A stretch of DNA of 63,177 nt, counting the filler, from Pseudobdellovibrionaceae bacterium (GTDB taxonomy: Bacteria > Bdellovibrionota > Bdellovibrionia > Bdellovibrionales > UBA1609), in NCBI GenBank assembly GCA_030591685.1. It is 7 parts of 7 records of this genome, joined end to end, with 100 filler letters (N's around TTAATTAATTAA, not from the genome) between each part and the next. Parts side by side here need not be neighbours in the genome. Positions count along the whole stretch, not along the records: positions 1 to 19,860 come from JAUVAX010000039.1; 6 more parts are not named here. One strand, written 5' to 3'. Of this stretch, positions 6,907 to 14,523 are shown one piece after another. The position numbers and the translations under genes are program-made. Each line of letters starts with the position of its first letter. Position 1 is the first letter of the stretch. A model generated the notes under the pieces. The model searched no databases. It was not told the origin of the DNA and saw nothing but the letters and a program-made list of their open reading frames with translations.

Positions 6907-9900
6907 TTGAGTATTAAACTAAAGGCCCTTATGGGTTTTAATTATATTTCATATTTTATTTTGTTAGCGCAAAATACTGTGCGCTCGTTTTTCTTTGTAT
7001 CACTGTTCACAACTTTTTCAATTTTCACTTTTTCACAAAACTCTTCGGCCGCCTGCGGAGGCACCTCCCGCATATGGGATGGCTCAAGTAATGACCAGTG
7101 GTCAAAAACTACCAACTGGAGCGCCAACAATGTCCCCGACACTGCGGCTGAAGATGCCATCATCGCCGCGGCAACAAAAGCCACTAAAGTTAACAGCAGC
7201 CAAACCATCGGGTGCTTAGAGGTCCAATCGGGCCAACTTAAATCGTTTACCGGAACATCCCTTACGATCATGGGTGATTACTTTAGAAACCTAACGGCCA
7301 ATGGCTTTTCTGTAACCCACTCTAACTTTTTTATTTATATGTCAGGCTCTGGAGCTCAGACTTTTGAAAACGTAGACCCTGTTTCAAACCTATCTATCAG
7401 CAATAACTCTTCTGTAACGCTCACGCTACCCTTTACCATATCTACGTTATTTAGTTTAACCGGTACAACTTCAAATATCTTTATTGATGCCGATGTTACG
7501 CTATTAAGTGGGGCCAGTGATTTTACCATACCCCAAGGTGTTACCGTTGAATTACGAAGTGGCGCCACTTTTACCGCCAATACAAATATCATTGTAAACG
7601 GAAACCTTATTTTAGGGGCCGGCACTTCACTTGTTATGGGTAACGGCAACTCCCTAACCATAAACTCTACAGGAAACATTGATCTTCAAGGGGCTAACGG
7701 TAATTCGTCAATTATCACAAGCACAGGGTCTGGGAGTAATTACAGCTTTTCTGTTGCAGGCCTCATGAACGCTGATTACTTTAGAATTGATCGCATGGAT
7801 GCTACAGGGATTAACCTTACGGGCACCCTGCAGTCATTAGATAATGGTGAGTTTCACTCCCCCCCCACCAGTGGGTATGCACTCACTTTAGGGGCCGCAG
7901 CTAGTATACCAACAACCATTGATAGCGTTGGGTTTTATGATGATGACGCCTTTGGGAACATTAAAAACTTTAATGCCACTAGCTACACAGGCGCTGTAAC
8001 ATCTGTAACTAATTGGAGTGGGGCCGCCGGTGGCAGCACAAACGAAACCGACCCGAGCAATAAAATTAACTGGGGTGCTCAAGCTGGTATTTTGTTAATC
8101 ATGTCTGATAGCACTCAGGCTGGTAGCCCCCCGGCGACCATTAACCAGTCTTCAGGTGATACTTTATTTACAACCCTCGCCTTTTCACTCAACCAAACAG
8201 GTACCGCCACAAATATTACAAGCCTTAGGCTTTCTATGACTGGCACAGCATCAAGTAGTGATATAACTAACGTTAAGATCTTTAAAGATTCGCCCGGTGG
8301 CACAAACTGCCAATATGATGTCGGGGTTGACACACAGGTCGATACCAGCAAAGTCTTATCAGGCTCACCCCCTGAGGCCACCTTTACACTCTCCGCTGGG
8401 GACGCCCAAACATCCAGTGATACCGATGTGGCCTGTGTTCATATAATCACCTCAACAACGGCCACAGCTCAAGATGCTAAAATCATTGAGTTCTCGGTTT
8501 CAAATACGAGTGATGTGTCTAACGATCAAGGCTATAGTTTTTCGCCCTCTTCGGGCCCTCCAATTACTGGTGGCAACAGCTCAATTAATGGTGTTGCCGC
8601 TCATGTTTGGCAAGGTGACGTGAATGACGAATTCACAAGAGGGCAAAACTGGAATAAAAATACTGCGCCCAATAGCACAAGTGATTGTATTATTGGCTCT
8701 GGCGTTAACGTTTGTAGAGTGGATGTAACTCCAACGGCCTGTCAAAATGCGACCCTGCAAACCGGCGGAACCATGAACTTTGAAGGCTTTGCGCGAAATT
8801 TTGAAGTTTACAGCGCCCTTGAAGTCCAATCAGGTTTTACCTTTTCAAATGCGGCTCTTGGTAAAATAATAATGAGAGGGGCCACAAACAGAACTCTTAA
8901 TATGTCCTCTACCTTTCCGGGCAGCATAGAGATCGCCAACACGGGGACGTCCCCCAATAATCTCGTCACAACGACCAATTCTTTTGAGATCCAGGGTTCA
9001 CTAGTTCTCTCTCAAGGTAGTTTACTTGTACCTAACGGAGTAACACTAACTGTCCTTGGGAACATCACTGTTCAAAGTGGCACTATTTTAGACATTGACC
9101 CCGGAGGCACACTTATTCTTGCCGAGGGCAGTGTTCTGACTGTTGATTTAGGCGGGCAACTTAACGTTGTGGGTACTGCTTCACTGACTTCAACAATAAC
9201 CTCTAACTCCTCTTCAGCGGGTTACAGTATTATTATTAACGGTCAAATCGGCGCAAAGTATTATAGCTTTGACCATCTCGGGGCCGGCGGACTCACCGTT
9301 GAAACCGGCGGAGCTATACACCCAGTGTACACTTTTGATAATGGGAGTTTTACTTACCCTGCTGATAGCAGCATGACCTTCCTCACTTTAAAAGTACAAG
9401 TCCCCGGGCACGCTTTTGATAGTATTAACATGGCCGCAGGAGGCTCGCCTGAAACTGGCATCACAAATATAGACACTACTGGCGCCGCCTCTGGGACACT
9501 AGCTGTTACCAATTATTCTGGTGATTTAGCAGGCTCAGTTTATGATACGGACCCCTTATATTTTATTAACTGGAGTGGTGAAACAAACACCATTGACATC
9601 ACTCAAGAGCAAACAAGCCCAGCCACCGTAGAGGCTGGGAGTACTTATGTCATGGGCCGATATGGCTTTCAACAGTCTCAAGCGGGAGCCTCATTTAGTG
9701 ATGCCGATGTAACAGCTTTAACCCTTAGACTCAATGGCACTGGCTCATCTAGCGATGTAAGTGCAATTAGGGTTTATGCTGACTCCAATTGCGATAGCGC
9801 AAATGGTATTTTAATTGGCTCAGGGGTGTTTTCTGGCTCTCCGGCAACTAAGAGCTTTGCCATTACCCCTGGAGATTTTGTAGTGGCTGCTGATGCCGCC

Positions 9901-14523: not shown

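Follow-up and report, generated by a model that had tools for sequence, protein, structure and literature searches.

To our knowledge, the C25 protease PorU is known only within type IX secretion. PorU is described as cutting its cargo in a flexible linker before the C-terminal domain, with a small residue preferred after the cut, and as joining the new cargo end to an amino-acid-bearing sugar (PMC11969387). In Myxococcus, the CPBP protease MrtX is reported to cleave Cys-containing C-terminal sorting tails (MYXO-CTERM), for which lipidation is predicted and which rely on type II secretion (PMC11980579). In the pathway of linear polyphosphorylated peptides (LPPs), the leader is removed by the S26 enzyme LppS, which leaves a free amine (PMC13381572), and in pseudomycoidin a kinase and a nucleotidyltransferase phosphoglycosylate the C-terminal Ser (PMC8498205). 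What paeninodin-type and LPP phosphopeptides do in polysaccharide loci is posed as an open question by the LPP paper, whose main text names no C25 protease, sortase or radical SAM enzyme (PMC13381572). Here we describe a gene for a 2538-aa C25 protein, the giant, from Pseudobdellovibrionaceae bacterium GCA_030591685.1. It joins a predicted adhesin, a PorU-like protease module and a Cys-containing tail in one chain, and across its family it occurs together with a cassette for a modified peptide.

The window is a stretch of 63,177 nucleotides made of seven contigs joined by N spacers (19861-19960 and later N runs); the true neighbourhood of the giant is only 1-19860, that is, contig JAUVAX010000039.1 (19,860 bases). 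The genome, 2.66 Mb in 98 contigs, was scored 100% complete and 0.72% contaminated, and is among the smallest of the 17 giant-bearing genomes (others 2.7-3.8 Mb, rounded). The frame reported by the initial annotation at 6907-14523 was open throughout. The start codon is TTG at 6907 or ATG eight codons later, and the predicted signal peptide remains either way. A homology search with the giant returned 35 matches, itself counted, and in 21 the identity reached 30% or more across at least 93% of the searched region; the named close homologues were from Bdellovibrionales, Bdellovibrio and Oligoflexia. The parts of the gene are listed below (rmsd, root-mean-square deviation).

6907..14523, + strand: whole gene, 2538 aa, single open frame (open reading frame, ORF, reading)
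6907..7050, + strand: predicted Sec signal peptide, aa 1-~48; the mature start would be a conserved Ala-Cys-Gly (sequence)
7051..8085, + strand: beta-helix unit 1, aa 49-393 (model; against the autotransporter passenger Vag8, 7akv, Z 20.4, rmsd 3.5, 306 aligned)
8107..8592, + strand: Ig-like domain 1, aa 401-562 (matches domain 2 as a repeat, E 4.5e-52)
8596..9585, + strand: beta-helix unit 2, aa 564-893 (model and profile; against AlgE4, 2pyg, Z 17.6, rmsd 3.6, 290 aligned)
9595..10077, + strand: Ig-like domain 2, aa 897-1057 (profile self-search and model)
10081..11106, + strand: probable beta-helix unit 3, aa 1059-1400 (repeat homology; profile against units 1 and 2, E 2.8e-18 and 5.1e-19)
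11122..11436, + strand: FN3-like 'PV' domain, aa 1406-1510, with a candidate self-cleavage site just before it (beta domain in model)
11506..12054, + strand: gingipain-type inhibitory prodomain, aa 1534-1716 (profile and model)
12082..13227, + strand: PorU-type N-terminal beta domains, aa 1726-2107 (model against 6za2; NF033707 positions 62-733)
13228..14340, + strand: C25 catalytic domain, aa 2108-2478, His2337 at 13915 and Cys2372 at 14020 (Pfam and model)
14341..14403, + strand: Pro-rich linker (sequence)
14404..14520, + strand: MYXO-CTERM-like sorting tail with Gly-Cys (Cys2502 at 14410), spacer, hydrophobic helix and Arg/Lys cluster (TIGR03901 and family conservation)

The protease module is a PorU-like C25 module, though not a PorU orthologue. 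The C25 fold was predicted by Pfam (Peptidase_C25 PF01364, aa 2112-2471, E 2.2e-67, 228.4 bits against a curated cut-off of 23) and by a structural model of aa 1396-2482 (pLDDT 87.5, pTM 0.80), which comprised the FN3-like domain, the prodomain, the PorU-type beta domains and the catalytic domain. The catalytic dyad was intact, as previously read, with the His in GHGS and the Cys in LNC; the His was kept in 179 of 179 aligned homologues and the Cys in 178. In the model, the catalytic domain aligned with RgpB (4ief) at Z 40.9 (rmsd 2.5, 325 aligned), which would place the dyad on a caspase-like fold. The giant was the sole C25 protein of this genome. PorU (6za2) was the best match in the PDB, both by sequence (E 5.2e-8 with the single protein, 5.5e-32 with the profile) and by Foldseek (E 1.3e-24), and model positions 331-1080 were predicted to superpose on PorU 28-790 (Z 20.4, rmsd 5.8, 581 residues aligned). 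The PorU model NF033707 gave 192.4 bits against a cut-off of 420 and covered positions 62-733 of 1095. Scores with it were 168-232 for 18 relatives and 929-1324 for three control proteins.

The propeptide-like segment of the initial annotation was weak in a single-protein Pfam scan (E 0.036, below cut-off) and was confirmed by the family profile against the Kgp prodomain 5mun (E 1.2e-6) and by the model, predicted to match the same structure (Z 14.9, rmsd 2.9, 159 residues aligned). The label 'gingipain-like', by contrast, was the wrong comparison, because the module has the PorU N-terminal domains and does not keep the gingipain pocket residues in a sequence alignment; Arg/Lys substrates are therefore probably unsuitable for an assay. 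RgpB Asp163 and Trp284, which we take to be the Arg pocket residues, paired with Ser2286 and Thr2409 of the giant. Among 75 clade members, the five commonest residues in the Asp163 column were Ser, Ala, Thr, Val and Ile, and the Trp284 column was Thr in 70.

A FastTree phylogeny of 90 catalytic domains, with weakly supported deep branches, grouped the clade with PorU-type C25s and not with short gingipain-type ones. Within the tree, a branch with support 100 set off the 28 labelled family members, plus one unlabelled tail-less sequence, from the PorU controls and from the short gingipain-like proteins. A scan of the genome collection with the single protein returned only five Ignavibacteriota/Bacteroidota loci, which served as controls. 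Two loci of the order, L045 (genome G039) and L046 (G032), encode short C25 proteins (520-670 aa) that lack both the FN3-like domain and the Cys tail and branch elsewhere in the tree; the order thus has a second C25 type, which is gingipain-like. The module has 7506 relatives among 50%-identity clusters at E 1e-10 or better, many of them without a type IX tail.

Co-occurrence was surveyed with profiles over 201 genomes of the order (labelled G, their loci L). The giant was counted in 17, including G077, where it is split across two contigs; five weaker short-C25 matches were excluded. A radical SAM peptide cassette, termed type-R, was present in 16 of the 17 genomes with the giant and in one of the 184 without (Fisher value 1.6e-21). 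The radical SAM orthologue was accordingly found in 17 genomes, the last being G055, in which the cassette stops 150 bases short of the end of its contig, just where the giant stands in three congeners. The co-occurrence spans five families and is discordant within genera g24, g26 and g71. The cassette adjoins the giant in seven of the 17 (G030, G037, G077, G084, G088, G097 and G183). PqqD and NTP_transf_5 were above cut-off in all 17, and in 18 and 29 of the other 184. Since the relatives almost always carry the cassette, the protease likely works with the peptide, and a functional link between the two in the family is very probable. Besides the radical SAM/SPASM enzyme, the cassette encodes an HprK-like kinase, a recognition element (RRE) for peptides that are made on the ribosome and modified afterwards (RiPPs), an S26-like peptidase and a nucleotidyltransferase, often with an ATP-binding cassette (ABC) exporter pair and a glycosyltransferase. 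Its precursor is ~57 residues long, has a YxxP leader and two Cys, and ends in Ser; the loci fetched from the 16 other genomes with the giant contained it in 15 cases.

Two genomes count against a strict rule: in G139 and G122 the cassette is a variant whose radical SAM enzyme is a different one, and no giant was found in them. This second cassette type, with a related two-Cys precursor, was seen at L083 (G139), L086 (G122) and L053 (G023), and G023 has both types. In metagenomes, eight of 17 loci with a family giant had at least one cassette gene in the fetched stretch; several of these contigs were short or near-duplicate, and the count is not relied on. Full-text searches of mostly open-access literature showed no paper on the giant family, on a C25 protease linked with a peptide cassette, or on tails of this kind in Bdellovibrionota; in PMC13200544, 'C25' stands only for a conductivity.

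The initial annotation offered two functions, prey or biofilm attack and a surface transpeptidase. The transpeptidase fits better, given the PorU domains and the unkept pocket residues, and attack is less likely. A degradative role, in which the tethered adhesin-protease breaks down proteins of prey or biofilm and the cassette co-travels in a surface-structure module as neither substrate nor acceptor, would agree with the gingipain-type prodomain and with the fit of the catalytic domain alone to RgpB (Z 40.9) and Kgp (Z 36.9), compared with Z 20.4 for the larger module on a latent crystal form of PorU. The host group is, moreover, known for predators. The giant is, however, present in only 17 of the 201 genomes and thus is not core predation gear. 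The Ser2286 and Thr2409 pairings in the alignment and the position of the clade beside PorU-type C25s (deep support weak) also speak against degradation, and with a general protease one would not expect a peptide cassette to accompany it in 16 of 17 genomes. We consider this explanation improbable.

Type IX export of the giant was rejected on the basis of marker and tail searches. TIGR04183 tails, SprA and PorV gave no match in this genome or in three relatives, and 150, 3 and 10 matches, respectively, in the control G041. GldK was not found in this genome, by a search in which the control itself scored below cut-off, and neither was GldM, by a search without a positive control. Neither a full type IX system nor a cryptic C-terminal domain was thus found with these models (PorL and PorN were not searched), in line with the route proposed at the outset, and export by a non-type-IX route is highly probable. 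Three features were absent from the initial annotation: the Cys-containing C-terminal tail, a type II secretion operon and the co-inheritance of the family with the peptide cassette. GspC, GspD, GspE and GspF were above cut-offs in one operon with pseudopilins in this genome, and GspD was found in all 17 giant-bearing genomes.

The tail scored 19 bits with TIGR03901, against a cut-off of 20, and was the only match of the genome (12.7 bits with the whole protein). All of the 22 top family members had the Cys and the hydrophobic stretch, although they had been picked by their protease region and not by their tail; the tail of one, P0017, is longer. A tail profile flagged 75 of 179 homologues; a Cys pattern matched 70 of these, and in the remaining five the Cys was seen on inspection. 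By analogy with MYXO-CTERM, the Cys2502 tail is likely a lipid anchor. The text of the MYXO-CTERM preprint does not mention Bdellovibrio or Oligoflexia and judges lone matches outside Myxococcota to be false positives (10.1101/2023.06.07.544157). A dedicated myxosortase tracking the giant was not supported: among 41 genomes, the CPBP query hit three with the giant (G028, G030, G040) and three without (G007, G019, G038), and missed G023 and G037. Two other loci of this genome concern C-terminal sorting. At G000:C73:54649-56232 (L038:1650-3233), a 527-aa Gly-rich, secreted-looking protein without any Pfam or NCBIfam match has a second Cys/hydrophobic tail with few basic residues. At G000:C77:68090-70731 (L039:1591-4232), a CFI-box-CTERM protein (72.7 bits, above cut-off) is followed by a gene for an MXAN_2562/Bd0486-like outer-membrane barrel; the two are another C-terminal sorting pair.

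Our preferred reading, held tentatively, is that the giant is a PorU-like self-sortase, made as a zymogen and likely surface-exposed and lipid-anchored, which detaches the beta-helix adhesin of its own chain and transfers it to the modified peptide. The giant would be exported by Sec, lipidated at Cys2502 with removal of the membrane helix, as in the analogous MYXO-CTERM proteins, passed through type II secretion, and activated through loss of its prodomain. The chain may then be cut just before the FN3-like domain, releasing the adhesin, and the adhesin might be joined by transpeptidation to the amine of a small modified peptide, made by the cassette as predicted. The C-terminal Ser of the peptide could in turn be linked through phosphate to a glycan. 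Self-cleavage with peptide transfer has a real but less than even chance. The fuller version, in which without type IX secretion a PorU-like self-sortase, held in the membrane by its lipidated MYXO-CTERM-like tail, couples its own adhesin to surface polysaccharide via a phosphoglycosylated RiPP linker cross-linked by the radical SAM enzyme, is doubtful.

The FN3-like module noted earlier was a beta domain at ~aa 1406-1510 in the model, between the passenger and the protease. Its distance from the protease is near-fixed across the superfamily, and passenger lengths vary widely. In 125 of 179 homologues it was found ahead of the protease (many of the others are fragments), and its start is conserved as Ser/Thr-(Pro/Ala/Leu/Ile)-Val. 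No second FN3-like domain protein was present among the 3342 ORFs of this genome, and any substrate bearing such a domain would therefore be the giant itself. A sortase acting in trans on other secreted proteins, in the manner of PorU and with the adhesin as an accessory, would suit the PorU architecture, and in one metagenome locus, from a more distant relative, a PorU-like gene is accompanied by FN3-domain proteins encoded separately (L109, L110). In this genome, however, neither a second FN3-domain protein nor a convincing short PV tail nor a type IX tail was found, and such a sortase is highly improbable. A trans-acting cargo with an FN3-like domain or a short PV tail was likewise sought in this genome and not found.

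Several points weigh against self-cleavage with transfer to the peptide. In most of the family, Pro directly follows the conserved Ser/Thr at the start of the FN3-like domain. Pro is a poor residue after a scissile bond, and a bond that would be natural in other phyla is therefore not transferable to this family. The acceptor of PorU is an aminoacyl sugar, not a peptide, and the release of an adhesin whose lipid anchor is already in place calls for some explanation. The Fisher value overstates the co-occurrence because related genomes are not independent. The type II genes, with GspD counted in the 17 giant-bearing genomes only, indicate availability and no more. The one CPBP protein of this genome scored 26.5 against an MrtJ cut-off of 75, and a CPBP protease was detected in 13 of the 17 giant-bearing genomes and not in the other four. 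Finally, no type-R radical SAM enzyme, S26 peptidase or precursor was found in six frames of this 98-contig assembly.

In the main alternative, the C25 module could be the last, extracellular enzyme of the peptide pathway and act on the exported modified peptide by trimming it, cross-linking it or fixing it to other surface molecules, with the adhesin staying on and holding the protease at the surface or glycan. Co-occurrence and adjacency with the cassette are explained equally well, the cassette includes an ABC exporter pair, the Cys tail already supplies an anchor, and many distant homologues have short N-termini. The cassette, however, already has a candidate leader peptidase in its S26 enzyme (LppS does this job according to PMC13381572), the conserved FN3 junction motif is left unexplained, and the enzyme is intact here, although the assembly yielded no such precursor. 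We regard such a finishing role as rather unlikely.

This genome is the one giant-bearing genome without the type-R cassette. An RRE, an HprK-like kinase and a nucleotidyltransferase are present on contig C98, in a separate, lasso-type cassette inside a polysaccharide locus outside the window (G000:C98:17389-24091; L047:5390-12092). Its precursor, made of a leader and a core whose position 9 is Asp, continues in frame into a PRMT-like methyltransferase of ~310 residues. The fusion was seen in eight of the 201 genomes, twice in G084; G084 and G077 have the fusion plus the type-R cassette. This cassette was examined and rejected as the partner of the family: of its seven other holders, G146, G117, G068 and G110 have no giant and G055 has none assembled. 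Given these four genomes, and a locus in the giant-free G146 that is similar to the C98 locus, the lasso-type cassette is not the family's partner.

That the usual partner cassette is unassembled here has about an even chance; that it was lost is somewhat less probable, and its replacement by the lasso-type cassette is improbable. In the event of loss, the giant might be an orphan in this genome and now only a lipid-anchored adhesin. The missing type-R genes fit this, as do the nucleotidyltransferase, ABC pair and glycosyltransferase on C98, whose best matches are type-R loci at 27-35% identity, as in a remnant. The dyad and all domains are intact, however, and the assembly is small and in 98 contigs. 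A cold-seep DNA run, possibly the source sample, has contigs that match the giant region at 99% identity or more with no insertion or deletion listed, at a depth near 5; they leave ~13257-14090 uncovered, the stretch that holds the catalytic dyad. Two RNA runs from the study gave no match to the region, which speaks neither for nor against expression. In G134, the cassette core and the nucleotidyltransferase are on different contigs, and one missing contig would thus give the picture seen in this genome. An orphan giant is quite improbable.

The adhesin-like N-terminus that had been proposed was resolved by profile self-search into three beta-helix units with two Ig-like domains between them, over the N-terminal 1350 residues. 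A model of aa 49-1064 (pLDDT 89.0) predicted right-handed beta-helices like those of autotransporter passengers and polysaccharide lyases; the matches to lyases and tailspikes reflect a shared fold only, as far as the model goes. A search of the ESM Atlas with the passenger gave a best score of 0.75 and no lead. Ig-like domain 1 resembles the N-terminal domain of Bacteroidota sialidases by weak Foldseek matches (E 1e-3 to 1e-2), and PF14873 was above cut-off in three of ten relatives scanned. By a simple pattern, 33 of 45 family members have the Ala-Cys-Gly motif within 70 residues of the N-terminus. At L103, two giant genes stand in tandem, each with an FN3-like domain and a Cys tail.

Upstream of the giant lies an MFS-acyltransferase gene (1636-3510), also found upstream in G040 and G028 of another family (L042:1-1328; L044:1-1358; 47-48% identity), which suggests an old, vertically kept giant locus. 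On the same strand, 237 bases past the giant, 14761-16749 encodes a 662-aa protein of a Bdellovibrionota family with PilZ/response-regulator-like features; its three best Atlas clusters were all from Bdellovibrionota.

The near one-to-one tie to the cassette gives a large PorU-like group, the 7506 relatives, a concrete partner, and it bears on the question of phosphopeptide roles in polysaccharide loci that the LPP paper poses (PMC13381572). The tail would extend Cys-containing C-terminal sorting signals to the Bdellovibrio group. If the self-sortase reading is true, a RiPP would take the place of the aminoacyl sugar of anionic lipopolysaccharide (A-LPS) in protein-anchoring chemistry, and phosphorylated peptides encoded in polysaccharide loci would have a structural role; a self-contained protease that ligates protein to peptide would also be a useful tool.

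Compared with known systems, the relatives' cassette resembles the LPP and the paeninodin/pseudomycoidin-type lasso clusters, as described in PMC13381572 and PMC8498205, in its RRE, HprK-like kinase, nucleotidyltransferase and signal-peptidase-like protease, and further in its exporter, YxxP leader and closeness to polysaccharide genes. It differs by its additional radical SAM/SPASM enzyme, by the two Cys of the precursor core and by its tie to a C25 protease. With the MYXO-CTERM/JDVT-CTERM proteins and their CPBP myxosortases, this genome shares the Cys motif, membrane helix and basic cluster, a type II operon and one CPBP protease. The giant, however, is just below the TIGR03901 cut-off, there are one or two such proteins per genome and not dozens, and the CPBP protein is below the MrtJ cut-off, with no MrtX model listed for it.

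Like the gingipains RgpB and Kgp (1cvr, 4ief, 4rbm, 5mun), the giant has a prodomain and a catalytic fold with the same dyad. Unlike in gingipains, ~380 residues of PorU-type domains separate the two, the adhesin is N-terminal, no type IX tail follows, and the Arg/Lys pocket residues appear not to be kept in the alignment. With PorU it shares N-terminal beta domains followed by a C25 His/Cys domain. It differs from PorU in lacking a type IX tail, in a host without SprA or PorV matches, in missing the NF033707 cut-off, and in belonging to a clade separate from the three proteins that pass it. To the PorU plan it adds the upstream adhesin, the FN3-like domain, the gingipain prodomain and the Cys sorting tail at the end. 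New relative to PorU are thus a different export, a different anchor, a fused adhesin and a probable peptide partner.

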